Of a stretch of DNA of 64,000 nucleotides, positions 8,063 to 43,534 are shown piece by piece. The notes below the pieces were generated by a model. The model worked only from the letters and a program-made list of their open reading frames with translations, had not been told where the DNA came from and did not search any database. Source of the DNA: Alkalispirochaeta sp. (GTDB lineage: Bacteria; Spirochaetota; Spirochaetia; DSM-27196; Alkalispirochaetaceae); NCBI GenBank assembly GCA_965242725.1, contig CBDESZ010000012.1, positions 32,001 to 96,000 of the forward strand, read 5' to 3'. Made by a program: the position numbers and the translations under genes. The stretch's first letter is position 1; each line of letters opens with the position of its first letter.

Positions 8063-8676
8063 ACAATGCTTTCCATGTAGGGCCTCATGATTTCGCGAAC
8101 CCTGCACACCTCGGCAAAGTGGATAAGATCGTCGATCGAGGAACGTTTGGCCCGGATGACATCTTTCAGGGCTTCGATTGCGACATCCAGACCGATTTTA
8201 TTGCGGTACTTGAAGCAATCGGCGACGGTCTTCGGGATAGAGTAAACGGCTACTTCTACACCGTCTATGGTGCGACGCTCTATGCCGTCGCTATAGGCAT
8301 CGCCTGAGAATCTCACAATTTGAATGGGATATTCCTGTACCCTGGGCATACGAGCTCTTCGTGGGATCGCGAGCCAGACCTCAGAGGGATTCTGCATTCC
8401 GATCTCATGGAATGAAAGGGCTGATAGGAGGCAGACGATACCGTGGTCAACGAGCTTGCTTGCTTCTATCAGCGAGTGGTATGCACCCGGGGTGTAGTCG
8501 ACCAACGTATAGAGTCCCCGGGCGGTACGCAGTATCTCACCGCCCCGCACCATACGGGTGAGTGTCTTGGAGTCTATCCCTTCCGCTGTGATTTCTCTGG
8601 AACTCATCATCGGAGAGTGCTGCAGCAGTTCCCGAACTCTTGACCGTTCCGCCTTCATGCCGTAAATTGTGCTCAT
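8059..8676 (-). CDS. AbiEi-type antitoxin / transcriptional regulator (type IV TA)
   Basis: LTRMVRGGEILRTARGLY wHTH; GIVCLLSALSFHEI; VYSIPKTVADCFKYRNKIGLDVAIEAL. Confidence 0.9.
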   Translation of the reverse strand: MSTIYGMKAERSRVRELLQHSPMMSSREITAEGIDSKTLTRMVRGGEILRTARGLYTLVDYTPGAYHSLIEASKLVDHGIVCLLSALSFHEIGMQNPSEVWLAIPRRARMPRVQEYPIQIVRFSGDAYSDGIERRTIDGVEVAVYSIPKTVADCFKYRNKIGLDVAIEALKDVIRAKRSSIDDLIHFAEVCRVREIMRPYMESIV

Positions 8677-8733
8677 ATATCGACAAATGTCAACGTTTAG
8701 CGGCATATGTGAATCACGAACAACATCGGGCAG

Positions 8734-9288
8734 CTACGAATACGTGTACGTATTCTGATTCGAATTTCCATAGGAAAACGGGATATTGACGGTAAAATCA
8801 TCGCCGTCACCGGGCTGGTCGTAATAGACCAGGTGACCTGCCGCGTCCCAGCGGTAGAGATGGCTCTTCCCGGCGCTGTCGGTGACGACCACCTCTCTGC
8901 TGTCAGGAGACCAGTCGTAGGTGGTGCTCCGTTCACCCGTCGGCTTCACCGCTATCAGCCGCCCGGCGGCGGCATAGGTCATTTCCGTCCCGCCCGTGGC
9001 GGGGCTGTCGATGACCGACAGATTGCCCCACTGGTCGTAGCCCAGGCTGGTCGTTTCTCCCGCTCCATTGGCGACGTGACGGGGGAGGCCCAACGGACCG
9101 TATCCGGCATAGTACCGGGTGCGTTCATCCGGGTCGGCGGCGGCGGTGAGATTCCCGCGCTCGTCATAGGTGTAGACCCACGCACCGGAAATCCCGTCGA
9201 TCTGGACGCGCCGCAGCTGGTTGTACGCCTCACCCCACTCATAGCGCCGGGTCACCTGGTCGGGGCCGGTGGAGCGGTCCTGGATCAT
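8734..9288 (-). pseudogene. Orphan Rhs core fragment without toxin domain
   Basis: Near-identical to internal YD repeats of 21214-25506; truncated after YYDQPG. Confidence 0.8.
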
Positions 9289-9572: not shown

Positions 9573-10048
9573 CTACGTTCCCATGAAAATTCGGATAGTG
9601 TCTATTTTGTTGTCGGAATCAAATGTGAGCTTCAACTCCAAAACATCGAAATCTTCGTTGAAATAGTAGAATGCCCCTTTAAACACCGTATCGGGTTGTC
9701 CGAGTAGTCGGAGAACATCGCCTCGGGGACTACCAATTGTAAGTCCATTGATTACGGAATATCGATCTGACAAAAGAGAAATCCCGTATATCCTGTTCTT
9801 ACCGTCCTCGGATTCGGTATTTGATGTAGAAATTGCTACGTTGTCATATCGATACACTCGAAGTGTAATACTACCGTAATCCCGAATTTCGTAATCCGTC
9901 ATTCCTAGAACGTCTATTGCTCTTGAGAACTCATCTCCTAACACAATTTTGAGTTATCTATACAAATGTAGAAATCATCTATTTCAAAATCCGCGTACAG
10001 AAATGTGCTGCCCAGCAAAAGGAGTGTGCCAAAAATAAATCTTTTCAT
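9573..10048 (-). CDS. Putative exported immunity protein for M23 toxin (frameshift near 9947)
   Basis: Signal peptide MKRFIFGTLLLLGSTFLYA; adding one A in an A-run joins it to ORF 9573-9944; low GC; immediately after the CT. Confidence 0.65.
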
Positions 10049-10059
10049 TGCGATACCTC

Positions 10060-11663
10060 TCATTCTTGTTTTGGAAGCAGTGTCTCAGGGTCTATTGGAC
10101 GACCATCCTTTCGAATTTCGAAATGTAGATGGGGATCGGTATCTTTCCTCGTTCCCGTTGTTCCAAGAAAATCCCCCTGCCGGACTTGATCGCCGGCTTC
10201 TACGGCATGAGTGTCCATGTGTACATATCGTTGCTCATATCCATCGTCATCCTGGATTATCAAATAGGAGCTACGACTCGCTGATCTCGAGTACTCCAAG
10301 TCTGCAACAGTAACCCTTCCTCCACCGGACGCATAAACTGGAGTTCCCATTGTTGCTCTCAAATCAATTCCATCATGCCGTGCCGGTATAGCATCGTCTC
10401 TCATTCCGAAGGGCGATGTAACATGGTTTTCTTTCAACGGCCATTCGAATCTTGGTTCGTTAACCTCCCCATTCCCCGGCACCGCCAGGGCTTCGGGCTC
10501 TCTTCCAACCCCCACAAATCCACAAAGTTCACCGGATCTCCGCCCACGTAGGCGTACCAGTTCCAGCCGTCCTGTATGGGATCTCTGCTCAGGAACTTGC
10601 CGTCTCCGCATCGTACCACCGGGCACCGAAGTAGGTAAGACCCGTCGCCTGGTCGTAAAGGTGGCCGGTGAACCCCACGCTGTTGTAGGGCTCAAAGATG
10701 CCGGCCATGGCCCTCCCGTAGGCGTCCCAGGCGTAGCGGGCGACCGGTTCGCCGTGGCGGTCGGTGATCGCCACGGGACTGCCCAGCCGGTCGGTGTGGT
10801 AGTACATCACCCCGCCTTTGGTATGCAGAAAGCCCTCCGGGCCCGGCTCTCGTCTGCCGTGAAAGCCGTACATCTTCACCGCCACGAGACGCCCCGCGAC
10901 GTGGAAGTACTCCTTGTATGGATTCGCCTCCTCGCCCTCGCTCACATCGTACTCCGCAAGGAGGGTCCGCTCGTGCCAGAGGTAGGCGCTGCGATCGGTA
11001 CTGCGTGGCGTCATTCGTTCATCGGTGGTTTCAATGCGTGATACCATTCGTCCAAAGGCGTCATAGCCGTAGCGTACGGTAACGCCTTCGGCCGTGCGCG
11101 CTTCAATGAGTTCGCCCCGGCTGTTCCAGCTCAAGGTTGTCGTGCCGTCGGGGGTTCGTTTCTCCCGGACCTCCCCGGCGCGGGTGTACTTGTAGTCGAT
11201 AGACCCCGCTTCCACCAGGCGGTTAAGACCTTCGTAGGTGAATTGGTCCCAGGAGCCGTCGCGGGTGCGGCGCTCGATGTTGGCCGCATCGTCGTAGTCC
11301 CAGGTCTCACGTTCCACGAGGGGTGGGAAGGTTACCTCGCTGTCCCACGCTTCACCGCCGGGATCCCCGAGGCCGGGCGGTCCCTGATCATCCGCTCTCC
11401 CCTGCCCGGGATGGGTCGCCTCAGGAACACCGGTGTAAATGGCACCGTACCCAACCGCGTGACCCGGCGGAAACTGTCCGTTCTGCCAGGAGCGGATGTT
11501 TGCTGTGAGCTCACTTGGGTATGAGATGTCGTCAAGCCGTCCCGCCTCGTCGTAATCATAACTCCAGCGATACTGGGCTTCCCGCATTTCCTTGAGTCGC
11601 TGGTCGGGGTAGTAGGCAAAGCTGCGCTCCAGAAGGGTGCCGGTTGGGCCGTTCCAGCTATAG
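10060..11663 (-). pseudogene. Orphan Rhs module with C-terminal M23 metallopeptidase toxin (frameshifts near 10600 and 10500)
   Basis: Rhs core end (ARWYD, DPVNFVDLWG); CT VTSPFGMR...HDGIDL...YVHM...PHLHFEIR..G.PIDP = M23 HxxxD/HxH. Confidence 0.85.
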
Positions 11664-11684: not shown

Positions 11685-12011
11685 TCAATCGTTGGGCGGA
11701 TTCCTGATCGCTTTCTTAACAACCATGCCTATACTCGCAACGGTTACGCCGGTTGCAATTATTACTGATACAACCATCATGAAAACATCCGTTGATATAT
11801 GTTGGACTCTTTCGACGTATATGCTCCAGACGGTCACTATCGCGAACATTAACAGTAGGGAGTATCCAATCAGATTTTTCATTTTACTAATCAATTTTCT
11901 CTGAATCTGTGAATCGGTTGCTTCGAGGCGACGCCTAACAAACGGCAAACTGAAACGACCAAGAATACCGATAAAGAGTACGTATCCGATAAGAAAATAC
12001 TCCACTTTCAC
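11685..12011 (-). CDS. Putative membrane immunity protein (3 TM)
   Basis: Low GC, hydrophobic, directly downstream of CT ending 12042. Confidence 0.65.
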   Translation of the reverse strand: MKVEYFLIGYVLFIGILGRFSLPFVRRRLEATDSQIQRKLISKMKNLIGYSLLLMFAIVTVWSIYVERVQHISTDVFMMVVSVIIATGVTVASIGMVVKKAIRNPPND

Positions 12012-12041
12012 ATCAATTCTCCCTTCGTGAAAAAGAACAGA

Positions 12042-14405
12042 CTATTCATTCATCCGCCGAATTGTCCGGTCAGCAAATTTGCGAATTGTCTCAACGGTGA
12101 TATCGATCCGATTGATCGTTTTATCAATATTTCCATGTCTCGCGAGGTCTGATCCGACGCTGAATGTCACCAGACCACCAATCGCGATTGGAACATTTCC
12201 CGAAATCACACCCGCTGTCGTCAAAGTCGCTCCCAAAGTCATGGCGTTCGCGCCGGCGACGCGCTCCCACCCAGTCGGCGTGTCTGGTGGCGGCGAATAT
12301 GCCGCGTGTTGCTCCATCTCCCGAGCATCCTGGTATGGATTCCTTACAGTTCCACTCGTCGGCATCGCCGCAGAATTGCTCGGTGGTGTTGCGTATACTC
12401 CTCTGGCAACCTGTATACGTCCCGGCCCTGGTTCATAGGCGATGGTATTCCCCGGCACCGCCAGGGCCTCGGGCTCTCTTTCCAACCCCCACAAATCCAC
12501 GAAGTTCGCCGGATCACCGCCCACGTAGGCGTACCAATTCCAGCCGTCCTGTATGGGGTCTCTGCTCAGGAACTTGCCCGTCTCCGCATCGTACCACCGG
12601 GCACCGAAGTAGGTAAGACCGGTCGCCTGGTCGTAGAGGTGACCGGTGAAGCCTACGCTGTTGTAGGGCTCAAAGATGCCGGCCATGGCCCTCCCGTAGG
12701 CGTCCCAGGCGTAGCGGGCGACCGGTTCGCCGTGGCGGTCGGTGATCGCCACGGGACTGCCCAGCCGGTCGGTGTGGTAGTACATCACCCCGCCTTTGGT
12801 ATGCAGAAAGCCCTCCGGGCCCGGCTCTCGTCTGCCGTGAAAGCCGTACATCTTCACTGCAATGAGGCGCCCGGCAACGTGGAAGTATTCCTTGTACGGA
12901 TTCGCCTCCCCGCCCTCGCTCACATCGTATTCCGATAGGAGGGTCCGCTCGTGCCAGAGGTAGGCGCTGCGATCGGTGCTGCGTGGGGTCATTCGTTCTT
13001 CGGTGGTTTCAACGCGTGATACCATTCGTCCAAAGGCGTCATAACCGTAGCGTACGGTAACGCCTTCGGCCGTGCGCGCTTCGATCAGCTCTCCCCGGCT
13101 GTTCCAGCTCAAGGTTGTCGTGCCGTCGGGGGTTCGTTTCTCCCGGACCTCCCCGGCGCGGGTGTACTTGTAGTCGATGGACCCCGCTTCCACCAGGCGG
13201 TTGAGGACTTCGTAGTCAAACTGATCCCACGAACCGTCGCGGGTGCGGCGCTCGATGTTGGCCGCATCGTCGTACTTCCAGGTCTCACGTTCCACGAGGG
13301 GCGGAAAGGTAATTTCGTTGTCCCACGCCTCGCCGCCACCGGTGTTGCCACGGCCGGGTGGTCCCTGGCCATTCGGCCCACCCTGCCCGGGATGGGTCGT
13401 CTCAGGAACGCCGGTGTAAATGGCACCATACCCAACCGCGTGACCCGGCGGAAACTGTCCGTTCTGCCAGGAGCGGATGTTTGCTGTGAGCTCACTTGGG
13501 TATGAGATGTCGTCAAGCCGTCCCGCCTCGTCGTAATCATAACTCCAGCGGTACTGGGCTTCCCGCATCTCCTTGAGTCGCTGGTCCGGGTAGTAGGCAA
13601 AGCTGCGCTCCAGAAGGGTTCCGGTTGGGCCGTTCCAGCTATAGGTTTTCAGGAGATTGTCGGGATCGTAAGTGAGGTGGGCGGCCGTGCCGTTTGCGTA
13701 GTCCAGCCGCGTCATGCGTCCGCGATCGTCCCAATCCAGGACGGCGCCGATGCCGTGGGGTGCGCTGAATCGTTCGGTCCAGCCCGCCGGGTTGCGCTCG
13801 TAGGTGACCACCTCTCCCTCGGGAGTTGTCATGGTCGCAAGGTTTCCGAGCTCGTCGTAACCGTAGAGGATCCGTTTCCCGATATCCTCATAGGTTACCG
13901 CCGAGAGACGTCCCGCTTCGTTGTACGCAAAGCGCTCCCGCATGTCAGGATCGTCCGCTACCATCAGGCGCCCCGCCGCGTCGTAATCAAAGCTCACCGT
14001 CTCGTCGGGATAGACCACCGATTCTAAGAGTCCCCGGCTGTTCCGGCGGTAGACCACCGTGCCCGCCACGGAATCACGCTTCTCTTTCACCCGGCCGGCC
14101 TCGTCATAGACATACTCCACCCGTCGCTCCGCGTCGACCATGCTCTCCAGGAGGCCCGAGCCGTTGTAGTTCCACTGGAAGACGCGGTTCTCCGGGCCGG
14201 TCATGCGGCGCACATATCCCCGGGGGTCGTACTCCAGATACTCCGAGACGATACCCCCCGGCTCCTCTACCCGATCCAATCTGCCGGCGCTGTCGTAGTG
14301 GTAGTTCGTGGTGCCCTCGGGACCCGCGATGCGTTCAATCCTCCCCGCCGGATCATAGACGTACTCCCGGCTCCCTTTCTGTCGTGGATTAGTAAAATGG
14401 ATCAT
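12042..14405 (-). CDS. Orphan Rhs module (N-truncated) with hydrophobic, possibly pore-forming CT
   Basis: YD repeats, Rhs core, DPANFVDLWG, CT with Gly/Ala-rich hydrophobic stretch. Confidence 0.85.
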   Translation of the reverse strand: MIHFTNPRQKGSREYVYDPAGRIERIAGPEGTTNYHYDSAGRLDRVEEPGGIVSEYLEYDPRGYVRRMTGPENRVFQWNYNGSGLLESMVDAERRVEYVYDEAGRVKEKRDSVAGTVVYRRNSRGLLESVVYPDETVSFDYDAAGRLMVADDPDMRERFAYNEAGRLSAVTYEDIGKRILYGYDELGNLATMTTPEGEVVTYERNPAGWTERFSAPHGIGAVLDWDDRGRMTRLDYANGTAAHLTYDPDNLLKTYSWNGPTGTLLERSFAYYPDQRLKEMREAQYRWSYDYDEAGRLDDISYPSELTANIRSWQNGQFPPGHAVGYGAIYTGVPETTHPGQGGPNGQGPPGRGNTGGGEAWDNEITFPPLVERETWKYDDAANIERRTRDGSWDQFDYEVLNRLVEAGSIDYKYTRAGEVREKRTPDGTTTLSWNSRGELIEARTAEGVTVRYGYDAFGRMVSRVETTEERMTPRSTDRSAYLWHERTLLSEYDVSEGGEANPYKEYFHVAGRLIAVKMYGFHGRREPGPEGFLHTKGGVMYYHTDRLGSPVAITDRHGEPVARYAWDAYGRAMAGIFEPYNSVGFTGHLYDQATGLTYFGARWYDAETGKFLSRDPIQDGWNWYAYVGGDPANFVDLWGLEREPEALAVPGNTIAYEPGPGRIQVARGVYATPPSNSAAMPTSGTVRNPYQDAREMEQHAAYSPPPDTPTGWERVAGANAMTLGATLTTAGVISGNVPIAIGGLVTFSVGSDLARHGNIDKTINRIDITVETIRKFADRTIRRMNE

Positions 14406-14613: not shown

Positions 14614-15003
14614 TCACAATACTGGAAGCATAAACACAGCCGCTGTGACCAGTACTCCGGAAAGGGCGCCTATCAGCCTTCCGGGACGTTGCAGTCCGTC
14701 AGCATTACTCTCCTTCTCTGCAGAACTTGGCTGACTAAAAACAACTGCATGCCCGACCAACGCAAAGAGAAGCCACAAACGTGCGCTTTCCCCTTGCTGG
14801 TCTCCGAGAACTGCACTTCCGGATAAATAGCCGATTGTGCTCATTCCAAAATAGTTTATCAGTTGAAGCACAAACTGGCCTGCACGCCCTTGTCTCCAAA
14901 ACGAGACCTTGGTCTGGACAAAAAGAGTGACAGTCGTGACAAACGGAATCGCCACTAATTCTGCCACGAATGCTACAAGTATTCCAACGATAATAATTAG
15001 CAC
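14614..15003 (-). CDS. Putative membrane immunity protein (4 TM)
   Basis: AGGAGG RBS + GTG; hydrophobic; low GC; downstream of CT ending 15148. Confidence 0.65.
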   Translation of the reverse strand: MLIIIVGILVAFVAELVAIPFVTTVTLFVQTKVSFWRQGRAGQFVLQLINYFGMSTIGYLSGSAVLGDQQGESARLWLLFALVGHAVVFSQPSSAEKESNADGLQRPGRLIGALSGVLVTAAVFMLPVL

Positions 15004-15147
15004 TCACACCTCCTGAATTTCCCTCTAACTCACTGCCGACCCACTACCTTCATCCAGCCAAATCCACTGATCGCGTTCTTCTTCTTCAGAATTCCTTAAC
15101 CACGAGAACCTACCAAGGAAATTGAACATGCGCACCCGTTTGCATCA

Positions 15148-18138
15148 CTAGTCACCACCCAATACTTGCTTCACTACTGGAACGATCACTTCTTTTGCCA
15201 TGTTGATGATTTTTCCGATGAATTCGCCAGCTTCGCGTCCCAGCTGAGACGCGTCATCTGGCGGGGCTTCTGGTGGTGACTCCGCTCCGGTAGGCTTCAC
15301 CGCGTCGGCGGCTCCGATCACGACGTTTACCCTGTAACGAATCTGGGCCGCAGGATCTGGCGTAGCCAGCATGCGACCATGCTCCAGGATTTTGTTTCGC
15401 ACACGAACGACAGTGTCCGCTATGCGACCAATCAGGCCTTTAGACTCAGCGTCATTTCCATCCCCTTTCGTCGCTTCCAACCCCCACAAATCCACAAAGT
15501 TCACTGGGTCACCGCCCACGTAGGCGTACCAGTTCCAGCCGTCCTGAATGGGATCTCTGCTCAGGAACTTGCCCGTGTCCGCATCGTACCACCGGGCTCC
15601 AAAGTAGGTAAGACCCGTTGCCTGGTCGTAAAGGTGGCCGGTGAAGCCCACGCTGTTGTAGGGCTCAAAGATGCCGGCCATGGCCCTCCCGTAGGCGTCC
15701 CAGGCGTAGCGGGCGACCGGTTCGCCGTGGCGGTCGGTGATCGCTATGGGGCTGCCCAACCGGTCGGTGTGGTAGTACATCACCCCGCCTTTGGTGTGGA
15801 GAAATCCCTCCGGGCCCGGCTCTCGTCTGCCGTGAAAGCCGTACATCTTTACCGCAATGAGGCGCCCGGCAACGTGGAAGTACTCCTTGTACGGATTCGC
15901 CTCCCCGCCCTCGCTCACATCGTATTCCGCTAACAGGGTCCGCTCGTGCCAGAGGTAGGCGCTGCGATCGGTGCTGCGTGGGGTCATTCGTTCTTCGGTG
16001 GTTTCCACCCGGGATACCATTCGTCCAAAGGCGTCATAACCGTAGCGTACGGTGACCCCGTCGGCGGTGCGCGCTTCGATCAGCTCTCCCCGGCTGTTCC
16101 AGCTCAAGGTTGTCGTGCCGCCGGGGGTACGCTTCTCCCGGACCTCCCCGGCACGGGTGTATTCGTAGTCGATGGATCCCGCGTCCACCAGGCGGTTGAG
16201 GCCTTCGTATTCAAACTGATCCCACGAGCCGTCGCGGGTACGGCGCTCGATGTTGGCCGCGTCGTCGTAGTCCCAGGTCTCATGTTCCACGAGGGGCGGA
16301 AAGGTTACCTCCCTGTCCCACGCCTCGCCGCCGGGATCCCCCAGGCCGGGCGGTCCCTGATCATCCGCTCTCCCCTGCCCGGGATGGGTCGCCTCAGGAA
16401 CACCGCTGTAGATGGCACCATACCCAATCGCGTGTCCCGGCGGAAACTGTCCGTCCTGCCAGGAGCGGATGTTTGCCGTGAGTTCACGCGGGTATGACGC
16501 TTCCTCGAGCCGTCCCGCCTCGTCGTAGCGGTAACTCCAGCGGTACTGGGCTTCCCGCATCTCCTTGAGTCGCTGGTCGGGGTAGTAGGCAAAGCTGCGC
16601 TCCAGAAGAGTTCCGGTTGGGCCGTTCCAGCTATAGGTTTTGAGGAGGTTGTCGGGATCGTAAGTGAGATGGGCGGCCGTGCCGTTTGCGTAGTCCAGCT
16701 GCGTCAGGCGGCCGCGATCGTCCCAGTCCAGGACGGCGCCGATGCCATGGGGTGCGCTCAACCGTTCGGTCCTGCCCGCCGGATCACGCTCGTAGGTGAC
16801 CACCTCTCCTTCGGGGGTTGTCATGGTCGCGAGGTTTCCGAGCTCGTCGTAGCCGTAGAGGATCCGTTTCCCGATATCCTCGTAGGTAACCGCAGAAAGG
16901 CGGCCCGCCTCGTTGTACGCAAAGCGCTCCCGCATGTCCGGATCGTCCGCTACAGTCAGGCGGCCCGCCGCGTCGTAGGCAAAGCTCACCGTCTCATCGG
17001 GATAGACCACCGATTCCAGAAGCCCCCGGCTGTTCCGGCGGTAGACCACCGTGCCCGCCACGGAATCACGTTTCTCTTTCACCCGGCCGGCCTCGTCATA
17101 GACATACTCCACCCGCCGCTCCGCATCGACCATGCTCGCCACGAGGCCCGAACCATTGTAGTTCCACTGGAAAACGCGGTTCTCAGGACCTACCATGCGG
17201 CGCACAAATCCCCGGGGGTCGTACTCCAGGTACTCCGAGACGATACCGCCCGGCTCCTCCACCCGATCCAATCTCCCGGCATTGTCGTAGTGGTAGTTTG
17301 TGGTTCCCTCCGGTCCAGCGGCGCGTTCAATCCTCCCCGCCAGGTCGTAGACGTACTCCCGGATCCCCCGGCCGGGGATGGTTTCGGTGCGGATCTGTCC
17401 GTTGGGGTGGTAGGTATACTCCCACACACCCGCCTCCGGCGGATTGTAGGCGGTCACATCTCCGGCAAGGTTGACCGTCCATTCGTAATGCGCCTCCGTG
17501 GCGTCGGTGTAGAACTCCAGGTGCCCCAGGGGGTTGTAGCTCCAGGAGTGGGCGCCGCTGCCCGGCTGGTCGTAGTAGACCAGGTTGCCCGCCGCGTCCC
17601 AGCGGTAGAGATGGGTCTCCCCGGCGCTGTCGGTGACGACCACTTCCCTGCTGTCGGGTGACCAGTCGTAGGTGGTACTCCGCTCTCCCGTCGGCTTCTC
17701 CGCGATCAGCCTCCCCGCGGCGTCATAGGTCATTTCCGTCCTGCCCGTGGCGGGGCTGTCGATAACCGACAGATTGCCCCACTGGTCGTAGCCCAGGCTC
17801 GTCGTTTCTCCCTCGCCATTGGCAACGCTGCGGGGGAGTCCCAACGGACCGTACCCGGAATAGTACCGGGTGCGTTCATCCGGATCGGCGGCGGCGGTGA
17901 GATTTCCGCGCTCGTCATAGGAGTAGACCCATGCACCGGAGATCCCGTCGATCTGGACGCGCCGCAGCTGGTTGTACTCATCACCCCATTCATATTGCCG
18001 GCTCACCTGGTCGGGGCCGGTGGAGCGCACCACGTTCTTTCGTTCATCATACACAAAGGTCCATCGGCGCCCCGTCTCATCGATCACGGCGGTGCGGTTG
18101 TAGCGATTGCCCGGGTCGGTGTATCGGTCCTGGATCAT
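15148..18138 (-). CDS. Orphan Rhs module (996 aa, N-truncated) with unknown helical CT
   Basis: YD repeats nearly identical to main Rhs; DPVNFVDLWG; unique ~110-aa CT. Confidence 0.85.
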   Translation of the reverse strand: MIQDRYTDPGNRYNRTAVIDETGRRWTFVYDERKNVVRSTGPDQVSRQYEWGDEYNQLRRVQIDGISGAWVYSYDERGNLTAAADPDERTRYYSGYGPLGLPRSVANGEGETTSLGYDQWGNLSVIDSPATGRTEMTYDAAGRLIAEKPTGERSTTYDWSPDSREVVVTDSAGETHLYRWDAAGNLVYYDQPGSGAHSWSYNPLGHLEFYTDATEAHYEWTVNLAGDVTAYNPPEAGVWEYTYHPNGQIRTETIPGRGIREYVYDLAGRIERAAGPEGTTNYHYDNAGRLDRVEEPGGIVSEYLEYDPRGFVRRMVGPENRVFQWNYNGSGLVASMVDAERRVEYVYDEAGRVKEKRDSVAGTVVYRRNSRGLLESVVYPDETVSFAYDAAGRLTVADDPDMRERFAYNEAGRLSAVTYEDIGKRILYGYDELGNLATMTTPEGEVVTYERDPAGRTERLSAPHGIGAVLDWDDRGRLTQLDYANGTAAHLTYDPDNLLKTYSWNGPTGTLLERSFAYYPDQRLKEMREAQYRWSYRYDEAGRLEEASYPRELTANIRSWQDGQFPPGHAIGYGAIYSGVPEATHPGQGRADDQGPPGLGDPGGEAWDREVTFPPLVEHETWDYDDAANIERRTRDGSWDQFEYEGLNRLVDAGSIDYEYTRAGEVREKRTPGGTTTLSWNSRGELIEARTADGVTVRYGYDAFGRMVSRVETTEERMTPRSTDRSAYLWHERTLLAEYDVSEGGEANPYKEYFHVAGRLIAVKMYGFHGRREPGPEGFLHTKGGVMYYHTDRLGSPIAITDRHGEPVARYAWDAYGRAMAGIFEPYNSVGFTGHLYDQATGLTYFGARWYDADTGKFLSRDPIQDGWNWYAYVGGDPVNFVDLWGLEATKGDGNDAESKGLIGRIADTVVRVRNKILEHGRMLATPDPAAQIRYRVNVVIGAADAVKPTGAESPPEAPPDDASQLGREAGEFIGKIINMAKEVIVPVVKQVLGGD

Positions 18139-18376: not shown

Positions 18377-18625
18377 TCAGTAAGCGAAAAAAGAGACTAT
18401 TACCACAAGTCCTGCAATTCCGTATAACGCCCAAAATAAAAGTCCTTCCCACGGAATTCTACGCTTTTCCCTACAAATCCTGAAGTAGTTACCTAGAGCA
18501 CTACTACCCAAATGAGTTCTTAACCAACGTCGGTCAAATGTCATATATTGCGCTAAGAACGGCAAAATCCTAAAGTAATAAAGAAGTAGAGCACCCGCAA
18601 TTGATACAATCAATATCCACAACAT
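18377..18625 (-). CDS. Putative membrane immunity protein (2 TM)
   Basis: ATG one base after CT stop (TAG-T-ATG); hydrophobic; low GC. Confidence 0.65.
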   Translation of the reverse strand: MLWILIVSIAGALLLYYFRILPFLAQYMTFDRRWLRTHLGSSALGNYFRICREKRRIPWEGLLFWALYGIAGLVVIVSFFAY

Positions 18626-18626
18626 A

Positions 18627-20547
18627 CTATCGTAAAGTCCTTGCATTGCGTGTATATGAGCCACCGCTATATCGTACGCGCGAGGCTGCTTCGCCGGCAG
18701 CGCGAAAACCAGGGTTGTCCACTGTATATGTCAGGGACGCCGATACTGAAACGGGTAATAACGACGATCCTCCACTCGAATTCGCTGTCAATTGTGAGGA
18801 TCGCCCCGTAGACGTTCTTGTCCCACTCAACGTCACTTGCGGTGTTACCGTAATTGGAGCTCCGAAAGTTGCACTCCCACTAATTGAAGCGCCATACATA
18901 TCATGCATCGTCGCACCCGGATAATTCGAAACACGCCTTCCAAAATCGATACCTATATCTGTTTCTACAATAGCAGAAACTTCAAATAGCCGTTTGGTTT
19001 CGACCGGCACACCACCCTGGTACTCTGTAGCTGTGCTTGTAGCAACTCCCAAACCAATCCCTGCATAAGTCTCTATATACCTAGAGTCCACTGATACTCC
19101 TGTAAAATCCGGTTCCGGCGGTTTCCCATTCCCCGGCACCGCCAGGGCCTCGGGCTCTCTTTCCAACCCCCACATATCCACGAAGTTCACCGGGTCACCG
19201 CCCACGTAGGCATACCAGTTCCAGCCGTCCTGTATGGGATCTCTACTCAGGAACTTGCCCGTCTCCGCATCGTACCACCGGGCTCCAAAGTAGGTAAGAC
19301 CCGTCGCCTGGTCGTAGAGGTGGCCGGTGAAGCCTACGCTGTTGTAGGGCTCAAAGATGCCGGCCATCGCCCTCCCGTAGGCGTCCCAGGCGTAGCGGGC
19401 GACCGGTTCGCCGTGGCGGTCGGTGATCGCCACGGGGCTGCCCAGCCGGTCGAGGTGGTAGTACATCACCCCGCCCTTGGTGTGGAGAAATCCCTCCGGG
19501 CCTGGCTCCCGTCTGCCGTGAAAGCCATGCATCTTCACCGCAATGAGGCGCCCGGCAACGTGGAAGTACTCTTTGTACGGACTCGCCTCCCCGCCCTCGC
19601 TCACATCGTATTCCGCAAGGAGGGTCCGCTCGTGCCAGAGGTAGGCGCTGCGCTCGGCGGTCGGGGGGATCTCGCCGTCGGCGGGTGTGGCTGTGCGGCT
19701 CACCATTCGCCCAAAGGCGTCATAACCGTAGCGTACGGTGACCCCGTCTGCCGTACTCGCTTCGATCAGCTCTCCCCGGCTGTTCCAGCTCAAGGTTGTC
19801 GTGCCGTCGGGGGAGCGCTTCTCCCGGACCTCACCCGCACGGGTGTACTCGTAGTCGATGGACCCCGCTGCCACCAGGCGGTTGAGCCCTTCGTAGGTAA
19901 ACTCATCCCACGAGCCGTCGCGGGTGCGGCCCTCGATGTTGGCCGCATCGTCGTAGTCCCAGGTCTCACGTTCCACCAACGGAGGGAAGGTAATTTCGTT
20001 GTCCCACGCCTCGCCTCGTCCCACGTTCTCCGCTCTCCCCTGTCCCGGGTGTGTCGTCTCGGGAACGCCGGTGTAAATGGCACCGTATCGCGTGTCCCGG
20101 GGGAAACTGTCCGTTCTGCCACGATCTGATGTTCCCGGTGAGCTCGCTTGGATATGAGGCGTCATCAAGCCGTCCCGCCTCGTCGTAATCATAACTCCAG
20201 CGATACTGGGCTTCCCGCATCTCTTTGAGTCGCTGGTCGGGGTAGTAGGCAAAGCTGCGCTCCAGAAGGGTTCCGGTTGTGCCGTTCCAGCTATAGTTTT
20301 TCAGAAGATTGTCGGGATCGTAAGTGATATGAGCGGCCGTCCCGTTTGCGTAGTCCAACCGTGAGAGGCGCCCGCGATCATCCCAATCCAGGACCGCGCC
20401 GATACCGTGGGGTGCGCTGAACCGTTCGGTCCGTCCCGCCGGGTCGCGCTCGTAGGTGACCACCTCTCCTTCGGGGGTTGTCATGGTCGAGAGGTTTCCG
20501 AGCTCGTCGTTGCCGTAGAGGATCCGTTTCCCGATATCCTCGTAGGT
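18627..20547 (-). pseudogene. Orphan Rhs module with Ser/Thr/Gly-rich beta-strand CT (frameshift near 20088)
   Basis: Core split between ORFs 19966-20592 and 18627-20252; DPVNFVDMWG; unique CT. Confidence 0.8.
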
Positions 20548-20765
20548 TGCCGTAGTGACACGTTCCTCAAATTCCACCGATACTGTGCCCACCCCCCAGG
20601 AGAAAGCGCCGTCTGCTTTTGACCAGCGTCGTCATCCTAGCTCACGTACCGGATACCAGATCGTCGACCCAATGACACGGACTGCTTCGACGGCCGAGAA
20701 ATCGAGGCGATTACCAGTCTTGTTATCCGCAGTACAATTCAACCGAATTTCAGTCAGATTCCCCA

Positions 20766-21149
20766 TTACTGCATTTCCTCCAGAGAATACCCTGAGCTGC
20801 GGTCCTTGGTACTCATCGATATTTTCACTAACGCGTCTGCAAGGTGGGATATTTCGATCACTTCAAGTACGACAAAAAAAGCTGTTAGGAAAGATAGTCC
20901 GGCGCCGACCATTCGGAGCGATAGGGACCCGTCAAACCAGATCGCGCCAAGTGGGCGGGATAGAGTGATGACCAGAAAAACTACAACACCCGCAACCAAT
21001 AGCCTCTTGGCTTTTCGTAATCGCCTATTGAGTTCTTCGATGTTCGATATTTTTGATATTACATTCTTTCCGACGACTATTGCCTGAATACCGGTCCCTA
21101 AAAAGGACAACCCGAATATTGCAAGGATTATCAGCATAATTTCTTTCAT
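20766..21149 (-). CDS. Putative membrane immunity protein for the full-length Rhs (3 TM)
   Basis: GGAGG RBS; MKEIMLIILAIFGLSFLG...; directly downstream of main Rhs CT; low GC. Confidence 0.7.
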   Translation of the reverse strand: MKEIMLIILAIFGLSFLGTGIQAIVVGKNVISKISNIEELNRRLRKAKRLLVAGVVVFLVITLSRPLGAIWFDGSLSLRMVGAGLSFLTAFFVVLEVIEISHLADALVKISMSTKDRSSGYSLEEMQ

Positions 21150-21213: not shown

Positions 21214-24200
21214 TCACCATTGTTGAATCCGGTCGATCAAGGCGTTCACTGCGCGACGGGTGCGATCAAGGCCACTCCCCTCCGCGAGATCGTAGCCCAA
21301 ATATGCCGTACCCGCTGCCGCTACAAGAAAGGGTGCGGCCGCTCCGGCACCAGATGCTGCGGCAGCAGCATATGAAGCACCGGCTAATACGCCAGCCTTA
21401 ACGACGCTCGTCGCTAACGCGGAACCGACGGAAGCAAACGTACCCGCAGCTCCAAATGCTGCGGTAGCCGCTTCGATTTCGATTTTTGACGCTTCTCGTG
21501 GTTGATTCTGTTCAGCCGCAAGTGTTTCCATCTGACGCACATCAGCATACGGATTTCTCTCTATGCTATTCCCCGGCACCGCCAGGGCCTCGGGCTCTCT
21601 TTCCAACCCCCACATATCCACGAAGTTCACCGGGTCACCGCCCACGTAGGCATACCAGTTCCAGCCGTCCTGTATGGGATCTCTACTCAGGAACTTGCCC
21701 GTCTCCGCATCGTACCACCGGGCTCCAAAGTAGGTAAGACCCGTCGCCTGGTCGTAGAGGTGGCCGGTGAAGCCTACGCTGTTGTAGGGCTCAAAGATGC
21801 CGGCCATCGCCCTCCCGTAGGCGTCCCAGGCGTAGCGGGCGACCGGTTCGCCGTGGCGGTCGGTGATCGCCACGGGGCTGCCCAGCCGGTCGAGGTGGTA
21901 GTACATCACCCCGCCCTTGGTGTGAAGAAAACCGTCAGGGCCCGGCTCCCGTCTGCCGTGAAAGCCGTACATCTTCACCGCAATGAGGCGCCCGGCAACG
22001 TGGAAGTACTCTTTGTACGGACTCGCCTCCCCGCCCTCGCTCACATCGTATTCCGCAAGGAGGGTCCGCTCGTGCCAGAGGTAGGCGCTGCGCTCGGCGG
22101 TCGGGGGGATCTCGCCGTCGGCGGGTGTGGCTGTGCGGCTCACCATTCGTCCAAAGGCGTCATACCCGTAGCGTACGGTTACGCCGTCGGCGGTGCGCGC
22201 TTCAACCAGCTCTCCCCGGCTGTTCCAGCCCAAGGTTGTCGTACCGTCGGGGGAGCGCTTCTCTTTGACCTCCCCGGCCCGGGTGTATTCGTACTCAATC
22301 ATCCCCGCTTTCACCAGACGGTTGAGCCCTTCGTAGGTGAACTGGTCCCACGAACCGTCGCGGGTGCGGCGCTCGATGTTGGCCGCGTCGTCGTACTTCC
22401 AGGTCTCACGTTCCACCAACGGCGGGAAGGTAATTTCGTTGTCCCGCGCCTCGCCGCCGGGATCCCCGAGGCCGGGCGGTCCCTGATCATCCGCTCTCCC
22501 CTGCCCGGGATGGGTCGCCTCAGGAACACCGGTGTAAATGGCACCATACCCAACCGCGTGTCCCGGCGGAAACTGTCCGTCCTGCCACGATCTGATGTTC
22601 CCGGTGAGCTCGCTTGGATATGAGGCGTCATCGAGCCGTCCCGCCTCGTCGTAGTCATAACTCCAGCGATACTGGGCTTCCCGCATCTCTTTGAGTCGTT
22701 GGTCGGGGTAGTAGGCAAAGCTGCGGTCCAGAAGGGTTCCGGCCGGTCCGTTCCAGCTATAGGTTTTCAGGAGGTTGTCGGGATCGTAGGTAAGGTGGGC
22801 GCTTGTCCCGTTTGCGTAGTCCAGCCGCGTCAGGCGACCGCGATCATCCCAGTCCAGAACGGCGCCGATGCCGTGGGGTGCGCTGAACCGTTCGGGCCGG
22901 CCCGCCGGATCACGCTCGTAGGTGATCACCTCTCCTTCGGGGGTTGTCATGGTCGCGAGGTTTCCGAGCTCGTCGTAGCCGTAGAGGATCCGTTTCCCGA
23001 TATCCTCATAGGTAACCGCAGAAAGGCGGCCCGCCTCGTTGTACGCAAAGCGCTCCCGCATGTCCGGATCGTCCGCAACGGTCAGGCGGCCCGCCGCATC
23101 GTAGGCAAAGCTCACCGTCTCATCGGGATAGACCACCGATTCCAGAAGCCCCCGGCTGTTCCGGCGGTAGACCACCGTGCCCGCCACGGAATCACGTTTC
23201 TCTTTCACCCGGCCGGCCTCGTCATAGACATACTCCACCCGCCGCTCCGCATCGACCATGCTCGCCACGAGGCCCGAGCCGTTGTAGTTCCACTGGAAGA
23301 CGCGGTTCTCAGGATCGGTCATGCGGCGCACATATCCCCGGGGATCGTACTCCAGATACTCCGAGACGATGCCGCCCGGCTCCTCCACCCGATCCAATCT
23401 GCCGGCGCTGTCGTAGTGGTAGTTCGTGGTGCCCTCGGGGCCCGCGACTCGTTCAATCCTCCCCGCCGGGTCGTAGACGTACTCCCGGCTCCCCCGTCCG
23501 GGGATGGTCTCGGTACGGATCTGTCCGTTGGGGTGGTAGGTATACTGCCACACACCCGCCTCCGGCGGATTGTAAGCGGTCACATCTCCGGCAAGGTTGA
23601 CCGTCCATTCGTAATGCGCTTCCGTCGCGTCGGTGTAGAACTCCAGGTGCCCCAGGGGGTTGTAGCTCCAGGAGTGGGCGCCGCTGCCCGGTTGATCGTA
23701 GTAGACCAGGTGACCTGCCGCGTCCCAGCGATAGAGATGGGTCTCCCCGGCGCTGTCGGTGACGGCCACCTCTCTGCTGTCGGGCGACCAGTCGTAGGTG
23801 GTGCTCCGTTCACCCGTCGGCCTCACCGCAATCAGCCGCCCGGCAGCGTCATAGGTCATTACCGTCCTGCCCGTGGCGGGACTGTCGATAACCGACAGAT
23901 TGCCCCACTGGTCGTAGCCCAGGCTGGTCGTTTCTCCCTCGCCATTGGCGACTGTGTGGGGGAGGCCCAACGGACCGTATCCTGCATAGTACCGGGTGCG
24001 TTCGTCCGGGTCGGCGGCGGCGGTGAGATTCCCGCGCTCGTCATAGGAGTAGACCCACGCACCGGAGATCCCGTCGATCTGGACGCGCCGCAGCTGGTTG
24101 TACTCCTCACCCCACTCATATTGCCGGCTCACCTGGTCGGGGCCGGTGGAGCGCACCACGTTCTTTCGTTCATCATACACAAAGGTCCATCGGCGCCCGG

Positions 24201-25506
24201 TCTCAGCGATCACGGCGGTGCGGTTGTAGCGATTGCCCGGGTCGGTGTATTCGTACCGTACCGGTGGGCGTCCGACAATCCCCTTTGACTTCAAACGTCC
24301 CAGCTCGTCGTAGACATATTGCCAGTCGGTTCCCCGGGGATCGGTGAACACGGTCCTTCGCTCATTGGGACTGAAATCGTAGGTGAACCGGTTGTACTGG
24401 CGGCCGTCGACATGGACCGTCACCAGACGGTCTTCCCCATCGTATGCGTACTGATAGACCTGTCCGGAGGGAGCCACCAACCGGTCAATCCTCCCCTCCT
24501 GATCGTAGAAATACTCCCGCACCTCGTCCTTCAGGCCGACCACCCGTTGAAGCCTTCCCAGCCCGTCATAGATGTAACGCACGTCCATGCCCAGGGGAGC
24601 GCCGACTCTAACGAGTTTGTCTCCCGTGTATTCAAAGATGTAATTCCTGCCGACGGCATCCTCGATTCGCGCAATACGACCTTCACCGTCATAGGTAAAT
24701 GACAACCCGTGTCCCGTCCGGTCCACAATCGACAGAAGGCGCCCTGCGGTGACCTCGTTCTCTTTCCAGCGTGCCCAGTACCCGGCGTAGGTGTACTCGA
24801 CGCCCTCTTTTGTCCGCTCGGTAAACGTTCCGTCAGGGTTACGAACAATTGTATTGGTGTTGAGCTCACTCCCTACCCACGCTCCGGCGGAGAGATCGGT
24901 ATCGATGAGGGGATCACCGCCGAATCCGTTTACGGGGATGTGCGGATTTGCTTCAAACATGTAGACGCTTGTCCACCCCTCTCCGTTGGTGACCTCAAGG
25001 GCGTAGTCCCACTTCATCGTGAGCCGTCGCTCAAAAGAGTGGCGCCACTTGGGACCCAGATCACCGCCGCCCTCCAGTTTGGTCGTATAGACGCGTTCCA
25101 GCGTAAAGGGATAACCGGGTCCGGGAATCTTTATGTCGGTGTAGTGGGCGATAAAATCACCGGTGTACGGGTATACGGGATCACCGGCAATCTCCGCACC
25201 CTCCGGCGCAGACGCACCGGTAGGAGGGGTGTCCGATTCAGCCGGCTCTTCCGGTGGATCACCCCGACGAAGCTCTTCCTTGGTAGGTGGGGGAGGATCG
25301 TCGCCACCTTCATCATCACAATTACCCCAGTAGGTACAATCTCGTTTATCTGGATCAATTTCGCTATAATTTGGATCTGCCGCAAGGGGCGCTATAACCA
25401 CAGAAATGGTTGCGAACGTGACAAAAGACCAGACCATCTGTCTCCGTCTTCTGTATCTGATAGACCTCGATTCGGTATTTTGTGAGGCAAAAAATCGAAA
25501 ATTCAT
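21214..25506 (-). CDS. Full-length Rhs/YD-repeat polymorphic toxin with N-terminal signal peptide
   Basis: RRRR + hydrophobic h-region + PLAA; GDPVYPYTGDF (DUF6531-like); YD repeats; Rhs core YFGARWYD...DPVNFVDMWG; Ala/Gly-rich hydrophobic CT. Confidence 0.92.
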   Translation of the reverse strand: MNFRFFASQNTESRSIRYRRRRQMVWSFVTFATISVVIAPLAADPNYSEIDPDKRDCTYWGNCDDEGGDDPPPPTKEELRRGDPPEEPAESDTPPTGASAPEGAEIAGDPVYPYTGDFIAHYTDIKIPGPGYPFTLERVYTTKLEGGGDLGPKWRHSFERRLTMKWDYALEVTNGEGWTSVYMFEANPHIPVNGFGGDPLIDTDLSAGAWVGSELNTNTIVRNPDGTFTERTKEGVEYTYAGYWARWKENEVTAGRLLSIVDRTGHGLSFTYDGEGRIARIEDAVGRNYIFEYTGDKLVRVGAPLGMDVRYIYDGLGRLQRVVGLKDEVREYFYDQEGRIDRLVAPSGQVYQYAYDGEDRLVTVHVDGRQYNRFTYDFSPNERRTVFTDPRGTDWQYVYDELGRLKSKGIVGRPPVRYEYTDPGNRYNRTAVIAETGRRWTFVYDERKNVVRSTGPDQVSRQYEWGEEYNQLRRVQIDGISGAWVYSYDERGNLTAAADPDERTRYYAGYGPLGLPHTVANGEGETTSLGYDQWGNLSVIDSPATGRTVMTYDAAGRLIAVRPTGERSTTYDWSPDSREVAVTDSAGETHLYRWDAAGHLVYYDQPGSGAHSWSYNPLGHLEFYTDATEAHYEWTVNLAGDVTAYNPPEAGVWQYTYHPNGQIRTETIPGRGSREYVYDPAGRIERVAGPEGTTNYHYDSAGRLDRVEEPGGIVSEYLEYDPRGYVRRMTDPENRVFQWNYNGSGLVASMVDAERRVEYVYDEAGRVKEKRDSVAGTVVYRRNSRGLLESVVYPDETVSFAYDAAGRLTVADDPDMRERFAYNEAGRLSAVTYEDIGKRILYGYDELGNLATMTTPEGEVITYERDPAGRPERFSAPHGIGAVLDWDDRGRLTRLDYANGTSAHLTYDPDNLLKTYSWNGPAGTLLDRSFAYYPDQRLKEMREAQYRWSYDYDEAGRLDDASYPSELTGNIRSWQDGQFPPGHAVGYGAIYTGVPEATHPGQGRADDQGPPGLGDPGGEARDNEITFPPLVERETWKYDDAANIERRTRDGSWDQFTYEGLNRLVKAGMIEYEYTRAGEVKEKRSPDGTTTLGWNSRGELVEARTADGVTVRYGYDAFGRMVSRTATPADGEIPPTAERSAYLWHERTLLAEYDVSEGGEASPYKEYFHVAGRLIAVKMYGFHGRREPGPDGFLHTKGGVMYYHLDRLGSPVAITDRHGEPVARYAWDAYGRAMAGIFEPYNSVGFTGHLYDQATGLTYFGARWYDAETGKFLSRDPIQDGWNWYAYVGGDPVNFVDMWGLEREPEALAVPGNSIERNPYADVRQMETLAAEQNQPREASKIEIEAATAAFGAAGTFASVGSALATSVVKAGVLAGASYAAAAASGAGAAAPFLVAAAGTAYLGYDLAEGSGLDRTRRAVNALIDRIQQW

Positions 25507-26879
25507 TCTCCCCCTCCAATCAAATACGGTGTCACGATGACAAACAGATCCGTCTCCAGGGTGCTGGTACGGTAGTTGGTAAAGAGCACCCCCAACAGGG
25601 GGATGTCGCCCAGGATGGGAATTCTGCCGCGATGACGGATCTCCCGTTTTTCCACCAGGCCGCCGATGACGATGGCCGTCCCCGATGCCACCCTGACCGT
25701 CGTCTCTACCTGGCGGCTGCTCGTTGTGGGATAGCCTTCCTTGGTTGTGCCGGTAATGGTGGTGACGTCGGTTACGATCTCTGTGGTGATCTCTCCGCCG
25801 CCGTTGTGGCGGGGGAGAATGGACAGCTCGATACCGCCGACAATGTCCTGCTTGGTCTGATAGGTCTGATCGCCCGAGGACTGAGTGACGATGATGGGAA
25901 AGCGCTCCTCCGTCTTCATGACCGCCGGAATGCCGTCGATCGTCGATACCCGGGGATTGGCGAGGATCTGCGCCTCCCCTTCCCCTTTCAGCATGTGCAG
26001 CGTTGCCCGCACCTCCACCGGAGAGCGCAGAAAGGTCTGCAGCGGCAGGGCGATCGCCTGGCCGTAATTGCTCTCCTCCTCCAGACCGATCGTGATGGAG
26101 TCACTCACTTCCAGCCCGAGCCGCGACGCGGCGTCGGTGTTGAGCTCCACCACCTGGGCGTCTATGAGTATCTGGTCCCCCGGGCGGTCCAGCCGGTCGA
26201 TGAGGTCACGGATATCCAGATAGCGCTCCATCCGCCGGTCAAGAATCAGTTGATTCCGCCGGGGCGCCACCTGTATCGCCCGGTCACCCCGGTCCACCAG
26301 CCGCCGCAGGATCGACGCGATCCCCTCGGCGTCACCGTACTGCAGCGTTACCGTGGCGTATCCGCCGTCGGCCTCTTCCGGAGGCACCCGGTCCTCGCCG
26401 GCCATATCCGCCGTCTGAAAGCGCATTGTCAGGATGCGTGCATCCGGTGATACCGAAACTACCTGAAAGGCCGGTTGGGTCAGCTCGATTTCCACAAACA
26501 GATCGCCCTTCGGCGGATCCCGGAAGAGCCGCGTCAGCACATCCGGCTCGTCCAGCTCCTCCGGAACGACCGTCACCGCACGGATCAGGGAGCTGCTTCC
26601 CTCGATCACGACGCCGTCGGGACCGGTCCGACCTGCACGGAGAAGAACGGTCATTTGCCGCTGTTCATCACCCCACCGTGTCTCGATTCCTTCCAGACGC
26701 TCACCGCTGATGCGTACCACGTTGTCCACGTATCGGATCGTCGAGATCACCGGACCATGGCGGAGACTCGGCCCGGTCTCGGCAAATACTCCCGCGGGAA
26801 GAACGAACAGGGAGAAAACGAACGAAAGGAGTATCAGACTCCTGGGGTATGGTGAGAAATGTATGCCACGAAGTATCAC
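25503..26879 (-). CDS. Secretin (GspD/PilQ-family outer-membrane channel), stand-alone
   Basis: Signal peptide; N3-like LQYGDAEGIASIL...RNQLIL...LIDRLDRP; secretin domain QILIDAQVVEL, ILANPRVSTIDG, IVIGGL, IPILGDIPLLGVLF, DLFVIVTPYLI. Confidence 0.9.
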   Translation of the reverse strand: MILRGIHFSPYPRSLILLSFVFSLFVLPAGVFAETGPSLRHGPVISTIRYVDNVVRISGERLEGIETRWGDEQRQMTVLLRAGRTGPDGVVIEGSSSLIRAVTVVPEELDEPDVLTRLFRDPPKGDLFVEIELTQPAFQVVSVSPDARILTMRFQTADMAGEDRVPPEEADGGYATVTLQYGDAEGIASILRRLVDRGDRAIQVAPRRNQLILDRRMERYLDIRDLIDRLDRPGDQILIDAQVVELNTDAASRLGLEVSDSITIGLEEESNYGQAIALPLQTFLRSPVEVRATLHMLKGEGEAQILANPRVSTIDGIPAVMKTEERFPIIVTQSSGDQTYQTKQDIVGGIELSILPRHNGGGEITTEIVTDVTTITGTTKEGYPTTSSRQVETTVRVASGTAIVIGGLVEKREIRHRGRIPILGDIPLLGVLFTNYRTSTLETDLFVIVTPYLIGGGE

Positions 26880-26939
26880 AGTATTCCTACTTTCTGGTCT
26901 CCCGCCTCTCAGGCGGAAACCATCCGGTTGAGTACACGC

Positions 26940-27047
26940 CGGTACGTCCCATTACTGTGACTTTTGGTTATGAAGGAGATACTATCTCACTTCCTGCGGG
27001 TAATCCTGTTTTTCGACAGGATTCTTTTGAAACTCAGGGGAATATCA
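26940..27047. repeat. Right copy of degenerate direct repeat bounding the Rhs island
   Basis: ggttatgaaggagatactatctcacttcc...ttgaaactcaggggaatatca; has an extra internal hairpin at 27002-27023. Confidence 0.8.
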
Positions 27048-41017: not shown

Positions 41018-41055
41018 ATTTATAGCAAGTTGGCCCGTTTTTTGCTTCCATGTTG

Positions 41056-41084
41056 TTGACATTTGTTTTTATGTATGATAAATT
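41056..41084 (+). promoter_or_regulatory. sigma70 promoter upstream of excisionase
   Basis: TTGACA-N17-TAAATT. Confidence 0.55.
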
Positions 41085-41168
41085 AAATATTGTAACAAAT
41101 TTCTCAAATCAAACCGGTTAGTTCAGATATTGTTGAGGAAGGCTGAAGACCACCACAGAGGGGGTCGT

Positions 41169-41351
41169 ATGTCCAAACTCTACAACTACAATGAAGCCGC
41201 TGAATATCTCGGTATCAGTCCGTCCACACTTCGCAAATGGGTATGTAGCGGTAAAATCGCTTGCACCAAACTGGGCACCGGTCCCAAAGCTCCCGTCCGA
41301 TTCACTGAGGAACAACTTAAAGCGGTCTTGTCGGTTTATGCTGCTATTTAG
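41169..41351 (+). CDS. Excisionase / AlpA-like HTH DNA-binding protein
   Basis: LYNYNEAAEYLGISPSTLRKWVCSGKI...VRF; GAGGGGG RBS. Confidence 0.88.
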   Translation: MSKLYNYNEAAEYLGISPSTLRKWVCSGKIACTKLGTGPKAPVRFTEEQLKAVLSVYAAI

Positions 41352-42188: not shown

Positions 42189-42215
42189 TATGTTAGTTTT
42201 GTATCTGGTTTGGCT

Positions 42216-42845: not shown

Positions 42846-42885
42846 AATTGTCGTATTTCGGATACCCAGTTACCGGAATAATATC

Positions 42886-43527: not shown

Positions 43528-43534
43528 ATAATCT

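Follow-up and report, generated by a model that had tools for sequence, protein, structure and literature searches.

In a 64,000-nucleotide (nt) stretch of DNA from Alkalispirochaeta sp. (hereafter, the window), a gene for a short secretin is coupled to a gene for a putative Rhs toxin that carries a signal peptide. This secretin-Rhs pair is real, conserved and apparently undescribed. Because it recurs in unrelated bacteria, and because no motor genes were found in the source genome (G000; 4.34 Mb, 34 contigs, 92% complete), the pair is a likely minimal route for toxin export. In the reading that we favor, to which we assign a probability of about one half, the Rhs protein would be exported by Sec, would then use a dedicated secretin ring that has no motor, and would be released or displayed, cleaved, and directed against the envelope of a neighbor. 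The core of the original prediction, that a dedicated secretin exports a signal-peptide Rhs, is supported by the conservation of the pair, by the separate clade to which its secretin belongs and by the failure to find a motor.

Both genes lie on the minus strand. The secretin open reading frame (ORF; 25503-26879, 458 amino acids, aa) is followed by an intact Rhs ORF (21214-25506, 1430 aa), and, as had been proposed, the stop codon of the former overlaps the start codon of the latter as ATGA at 25503-25506 (junction sequence GGAGAATGAATTTT). The Rhs protein begins with four arginines (RRRR), followed by a hydrophobic stretch whose best 15-aa window, starting at aa 28, has a hydropathy of 2.17, and by a candidate cleavage site between PLAA and D. 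These features, which match the signal-peptide-like start described earlier, make up a predicted Sec signal peptide (aa 1-43; 25378-25506, minus strand) that was called from sequence and hydropathy rather than by a predictor. The long n-region and the ATGA overlap are shared with the close relative in G008. The family scan of the Rhs protein gave no match to PAAR, WXG or TPS families, again as expected; it contains DUF6531, RHS (YD) repeats and an Rhs-associated core (aa 1228-1301). An acidic, Pro-rich leader (aa 44-107; 25186-25377, minus strand) precedes DUF6531, with an Asp-plus-Glu fraction of 0.30 compared with 0.15 in the cage. This fraction is 0.24-0.50 in all eight clade Rhs proteins measured, and is 0.31 also in non-clade Rhs proteins of G030 and G761; the leader is a lead only, because kinship and salt-adapted proteomes confound the comparison. 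Transport by either Sec or Tat had been allowed for. The Tat route was rejected, because TatC was not found in G000 and the partner Rhs proteins lack twin arginines, which leaves Sec.

The secretin matches PF00263 at aa 297-454 (E 1.8e-35) and, weakly, Secretin_N at aa 175-236. Its architecture consists of a signal peptide (approximately aa 1-34), an AMIN-like beta domain (approximately 44-156), one N3 domain (175-236) and the barrel, and the protein ends four residues past the last strand, without an S-domain. A barrel preceded by N3 places it in the secretin superfamily, and it falls below all NCBIfam cut-offs, including those for GspD (136 bits versus 351) and PilQ (114 bits versus 284). 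No N0/STN domain was matched in this protein or in any core-clade protein scanned. In a predicted monomer model (pLDDT 63, pTM 0.37), the N-terminal beta domain is all-beta. It is probably AMIN-like, based on weak matches: Pfam matched AMIN in three homologue scans (E 0.005-0.04) and not in the window secretin, a protein atlas gave a lead (0.86), and neither hhalign (probability 0.7%) nor a PDB profile search gave support.

Two secretin matches were found in G000, one in the window and one on contig C4; they are 94% identical overall, and their barrels are 99% identical. The C4 secretin is likewise ATGA-coupled to a signal-peptide Rhs, whose coding sequence is divided between two reading frames and which is only about 28% (27-29%) identical to the window Rhs. 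The duplicated DNA (1521 nt at 93% identity; window 25503-27023) includes a noncoding stretch of 144 nt upstream of the secretin (26880-27023, minus strand, identified by DNA comparison), and similarity stops exactly at the Rhs start, that is, at the ATGA junction. For the N3 and barrel region of the two secretins, the ratio of nonsynonymous to synonymous substitution (dN/dS) is 0.032 at a dS of 0.22, so the secretin is under purifying selection. At a third Rhs locus, on contig C16, the Rhs N-terminus is missing and there is no secretin, and DUF6531 matches in G000 number two. A promoter and terminator scan gave signals at chance level, and a look through sequencing runs listed no RNA data set.

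The island had been described as free of genes for type II secretion systems (T2SS), pili and type VI secretion systems (T6SS). This holds and now extends to the whole assembly: searches of G000 found none of T2SSE (GspE/PilB), T2SSF (GspF), pilin N-methyl or prepilin peptidase, nor VgrG, Zot or TatC. A tblastn search with 42 ORFs from T2SS and pilus operons of relatives returned the two secretins and one match at E 0.005.

Distribution and phylogeny of the pair

A homologue search with the secretin yielded 13 proteins at E 1e-94 or better, followed by a drop to 1e-28, and when a profile was run against 1.84 billion representatives, approximately 10 clusters stood above background. By source name, clade members come from Spirochaetia, Limnochorda, Limnochordales, Syntrophothermus and Bacillota, with Spirochaetia names on the close homologues and on related loci. 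The clade secretin is rare, being present in 4 of 401 Spirochaetia genomes and in 2 of 95 genomes from the class of G429; at E below 1e-100, 4 of 301 genomes from the phylum to which G429 belongs have a match. No relative was found in viral contigs. Fusions of secretin to Rhs were absent among the four matches of 875-2495 aa (7999 candidates scored), which is weak evidence. Giant secretins, 3000-5500 aa long and matched over 13-25 stretches, were also numerous in the profile search (for example, P0138, P0146 and P0158).

The clade is represented by 14 loci: the window, C4, and loci in G002, G008, G056, G283, G312, G429, G430, G431, G597, G840 (two) and L046. Throughout, the secretins have a signal peptide, a variable all-beta domain, one N3 domain and a barrel, without a C-terminal S-domain. 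RHS repeats or DUF6531 lie downstream in 12 of the 14, directly or past one accessory gene, so that the order seen in the window recurs at the second G000 locus and at 10 loci of other genomes or metagenomes. As for the other two, the G429 locus (L042) encodes a signal peptide and acidic leader before its contig ends, and the G312 locus (L041) ends at the secretin stop. The ATGA overlap occurs in five clade loci. Both G840 loci, which were fetched after the pattern had been set, fit it. No motor genes were seen in the 14 loci, many of whose contigs are short. The adjacency is therefore not due to chance. Nor is it peculiar to G000, which would have counted against the original prediction; it occurs in two phyla, in Deinococcus and in a second clade.

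The proposal of a two-gene system needs correction for four loci from Bacillota (G430, G431, G597 and one of G840), in which a third gene, encoding an exported protein of 330-365 aa, lies between secretin and Rhs. This accessory gene has no homologue in G000 and thus is not a universal part of the system; in G431 it is broken, and the secretin there is also interrupted.

Among 19 non-clade Bacillota secretin loci examined as a control, 13 are in pilus or T2SS clusters, three are with Ig-like genes, one is unclear and two are with Rhs. Coordinate crossing added three loci (G712, G472 and G527) to this second Rhs-linked type from Bacillota, as well as a long secretin upstream of Rhs in G585. The two best plasmid secretins by E-value are both from Deinococcus, a sample of two plasmids. 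In these plasmids (L047:1284-13106 and L048:1-12777), the Rhs gene is divergent from an operon encoding an Ig-like protein, an S8 protease and the secretin, so that the first two lie between the secretin and the opposite Rhs gene; the protease may process Rhs. Other arrangements were also observed. Short STN-type secretins without motors occur amid exported Ig/Fn3-like and unassigned proteins in Bacillota and one spirochaete (L095:3867-9450, L108:4821-10198, L110:7939-14014 and L218:5254-9726), the three from Bacillota forming their own clade (98/95). Outside both Rhs-linked clades, a secretin of 1099 aa that contains three STN domains and three N domains lies directly upstream of a signal-peptide Rhs (L198:3130-12135).

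For phylogenetic analysis, a careful tree was built from 38 of 83 rows, after long and near-duplicate rows were dropped, and a quick tree from all 83. Support is 99/96 for the core clade, 88/94 for its union with the Deinococcus pair and 100/100 for the second Bacillota group. All 17 rows of these groups fall on one side of a branch with support of 78/87; for one of them (G687), no Rhs was seen alongside. Grouping of the core clade with spirochaete T2SS secretins was rejected (p-AU 1.2e-5). The window secretin does not group with these or with the sampled Bacillota pilus secretins, and no complete system was found in G000, all of which agrees with the original prediction. Across phyla, barrel identity is 47-50%, and linkage to Rhs is kept. 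The histories of secretin and Rhs are not congruent: the window Rhs is closer to the Rhs proteins of G840 (42%) than to the C4 Rhs (27-29%), despite the barrel identity of 99% within G000. By BLAST, the C4 Rhs is, after its G002 counterpart, closest to Rhs proteins that adjoin T2SS operons in spirochaetes. A tree of the Rhs core ends was poorly resolved and, because its pattern missed 9 of 42 rows, the window Rhs among them, carries no weight here. The incongruence makes the secretin a head module accepting different Rhs cages.

Rhs proteins with signal peptides are far more common than the clade secretin, with DUF6531 found in 32 of the 99 genomes surveyed in the order. Among Spirochaetales genomes, 15 of the 32 that have a secretin also have DUF6531, versus 3 of the 29 that have none (Fisher p 0.002, an overstated value, since related genomes are not independent). 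Among the secretin-negative genomes, a re-search was confined to those three, with three controls; it recovered a long secretin in two of the three. One of these is truncated where its contig, which also carries the Rhs, ends; the other is split. Of 20 longer, hand-picked spirochaete Rhs stretches, six place Rhs beside a full T2SS operon, and G026 adds one, which suggests that Rhs is T2SS cargo in these spirochaetes. Rhs genes of this kind, encoding signal-peptide proteins of approximately 2000 aa, were observed at L172, L173, L174, L175, L188, L190 and L222. Spirochaete Rhs proteins seem to use secretins generally, usually within a T2SS, and the clade secretin would be a stripped-down route. 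Rhs use of secretins is therefore broader than this pair, which amends the original prediction.

Toxin array and flanking genes

The region downstream of the pair is a standard polymorphic toxin array in which YD repeats, an Rhs core, a variable tip and orphan modules are present; the toxic and immunity roles are assigned from sequence. All features of the array are on the minus strand. After the motif DPVNFVDMWG (aa 1291-1300), the window Rhs ends in a variable tip (21214-21603) with a long Ala/Gly-rich hydrophobic stretch and no Pfam match, which is putatively a membrane-damaging toxin. The cleavage-type motif is intact. The adjacent gene (20766-21149) encodes a small hydrophobic protein without a family match that, by position and sequence, is the presumed cognate immunity protein.

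Four orphan modules follow, with 89-92% DNA identity to the main Rhs gene and different tips. The first (18377-20592) consists of a frameshifted Rhs remnant (18627-20592) and a small membrane protein (18377-18664), and the second (14614-18138) of an N-terminally truncated Rhs (15148-18138) and a membrane protein (14614-15003). The third (11685-14405) has a truncated Rhs with a hydrophobic tip (12042-14405) and a membrane protein (11685-12011). In the fourth (9573-11587), the Rhs remnant is in pieces and has a peptidase M23 tip (10060-10695), and the companion protein is small and soluble (9573-9944). An internal Rhs fragment (8734-9288), recognized by family matches and sequence, ends the array and adjoins an AbiEi/AbiEii type IV toxin-antitoxin pair (7158-8706) whose AbiEii is apparently in pieces. 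Tips in the array are thus hydrophobic or M23, and candidate immunity proteins are mostly membrane proteins, a combination that would suit delivery from outside without a needle.

Elsewhere in the window, a region of low GC content (39675-50225; 38-51%) carries two phage integrase genes (39675-41000 and 44283-45116) and several ORFs without a Pfam match. Two tandem GGDEF proteins that bind cyclic nucleotides (cNMP) are encoded at 51452-53487, and upstream of them is a 1539-aa Fn3/pectate-lyase-like surface protein (53736-58355).

Export route and competing explanations

In the favored reading, Rhs would cross the inner membrane by Sec and enter a gated outer-membrane ring formed by the secretin and probably held on peptidoglycan by the AMIN-like domain, with the acidic leader possibly leading the way. 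Rings of the secretin superfamily comprise 12-15 subunits. Rhs would then be released or displayed, and folding of the beta-cage outside could be a driving force. Later, the cage would cleave off its tip, which would attack the envelope of neighboring bacteria, while the downstream gene would protect the producer and orphan modules would swap in new tips. Rhs cages are approximately 60-65 A wide. A folded cage could plausibly pass only through an opened gate; alternatively, the chain may be threaded and fold outside, as happens in two-partner secretion. For comparison, T2SS cargo and the pseudopilus are 55-60 A, according to excerpts from PMC10550240. A more far-reaching version of this reading, which we hold tentatively and at somewhat less than even odds, is that the system is self-sufficient, with a secretin stripped of docking domains exporting Rhs proteins of 150-330 kDa without a motor, and that the Rhs-linked lone secretins of Spirochaetota, Bacillota and Deinococcota represent one invention.

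Several observations weigh against the favored reading. A secretin lies within 1.5 kb of only 4 of 60 DUF6531 loci, and none is present in 14 of the 20 longer spirochaete stretches or in 16 of 20 hand-picked from Bacillota. G032 (94% complete) has a signal-peptide Rhs, and no secretin was found in it, the re-search included. Components of a T2SS or pilus are encoded as well in five carriers (G002, G008, G056, G431 and G597). Assignment of the beta domain to AMIN is weak, and a single origin of all Rhs-linked secretins has support of only 78/87. Some loci are broken, with Rhs split at C4 and in G283 and the secretin interrupted in G431. G000 is incomplete, and Pfam missed GspF in G008 despite a T2SS-like operon there. 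Finally, no energy source for the motor-less model was found.

The best-surviving alternative, although improbable in our judgment, is that the secretin is dedicated to Rhs but only the tip is released: the cage would stay periplasmic, dock under the pore and release its cleaved tip, much as a Tc cocoon does into TcA. This idea fits all neighborhood data and the intact cleavage-type motif, and it requires no large folded cage to pass a motor-less gate; excerpts from PMC10550240 describe a closed N-module of approximately 45 A as too narrow for a 55 A substrate. A precise docking face is, however, hard to reconcile with a 99%-identical barrel that serves cages only about 28% alike, and membrane-acting or M23 tips in the producer's own periplasm would presumably burden immunity.

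Nearly as well placed, and also unlikely, is the possibility that the secretin offers a specific substrate an alternative pore and relies on a borrowed T2SS or pilus motor, whose genes lie elsewhere and are either missing from the assembly or too divergent to be recognized. The T2SS-adjacent Rhs genes of spirochaetes and the incompleteness of G000 favor it, as does the treatment of gspD as a possible loner in the available parts of Denise 2019 (PMC6668835), which also place T2SS in Spirochaetes. Some carriers have both the clade secretin and motors, and borrowing may apply in those carriers. For G000, the four motor-related Pfam families and the 42 ORF queries were negative. In G283, which has one secretin match, and in G312, no motor scored over cut-off. 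No N0 domain, on which the inner-membrane platform usually docks, was detected, and the tree separates the two types of secretin.

We consider it distinctly improbable that the secretin serves the receiving side or acts as a tether, either anchoring Rhs from outside or admitting toxins or kin signals, with Rhs leaving by vesicles or lysis. Secretins can act as entry receptors, for example for phage (PMC8101328), and the apparent lack of a secretin in G032 would be consistent with this role. Translational coupling is nevertheless to the full-length toxin gene and not to immunity genes, and in G000 each full-length Rhs comes with a single secretin, while the truncated C16 locus has none in front of it. 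Finally, a passenger secretin that travels with a mobile toxin island and contributes nothing to Rhs biology would fit the patchy distribution and the decay of some loci but is very improbable, given the purifying selection, the linkage kept across phyla and through Rhs swaps, and the duplication boundary at the Rhs start.

Relation to known systems

By its organization, the pair would work like MafAB or CdiBA while belonging to neither, and its secretin fails the system tests for GspD, PilQ and pIV. Two-partner secretion (CdiBA) has the same gene order of transporter, giant toxin and immunity gene, and uses Sec and then a dedicated pore without ATP; its transporter is instead an Omp85 barrel with POTRA domains, and its cargo has a TPS domain and a beta-helix, neither of which is present in the window. 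Maf islands carry orphan cassettes, as does the window array. In excerpts from PMC7738311, the MafA-MafB system of Neisseria is a polymorphic toxin island with immunity genes, and an oligomeric outer-membrane protein encoded alongside the toxin carries it out of the cell. MafA is no secretin, however, MafB is no Rhs cage, and neither family was matched in the window.

With GspD and PilQ (PDB 5wq7, 6ve2 and 6w6m), the window secretin shares N3, the barrel, an invariant G349 in the strand matching GspD TVGTKL, and an IPxLGDIPxLG loop. It differs in lacking N0-N2 and the S-domain, in its subthreshold NCBIfam scores, in having no motor or pilin genes found, and in forming its own clade; the pilMNOP context, PilB/PilT and N0 that typify PilQ were not found for it. 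PilQ also carries an N-terminal AMIN domain, to which the beta domain of the window secretin is a weakly matched candidate counterpart. The spirochaete T2SS operons with Rhs (L172-L175, L188 and L190) also combine a secretin with a Sec-signal DUF6531 Rhs, but their secretins are of 720-900 aa, belong to a separate clade and are accompanied by an ATPase, GspF and pilin. Filamentous phage pIV (PDB 7ofh) is likewise a short secretin, and the export system that it serves is very small. It works with the pI/Zot ATPase, however, and its cargo is a virion; Zot was not found in G000. Unlike T6SS Rhs effectors, the window Rhs has no PAAR or adaptor region, and no VgrG was found in G000.

Closest on the toxin side are WapA and the "T2SS/Sec-dependent" Rhs proteins of Zhang 2012 (PMC3482391), which share the signal peptide, RHS repeats, variable tip and immunity. 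Excerpts from that survey place signal-peptide Rhs in a default T2SS/Sec class without a signature neighbor gene, and they leave secretins unmentioned. The parts of PMC8636562, PMC8765631 and PMC12419801 that were available contain nothing on a secretin-Rhs pair. A literature search of titles and abstract openings, with supplements and subscription papers outside its scope, likewise returned no description of one.

To our knowledge, characterized secretins all work with an inner-membrane motor (T2SS, pili, type III secretion systems, phage pI). If this secretin exports a giant protein alone, it would provide a direct test of whether gate opening needs a piston, in a two-gene system that could be rebuilt in a laboratory strain. 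The pair offers an answer to how signal-peptide Rhs proteins, a class without a marker gene in the excerpted 2012 survey (PMC3482391), may cross the outer membrane of two-membrane bacteria, and the wider comparison makes the spirochaete T2SS a likely exporter of Rhs.

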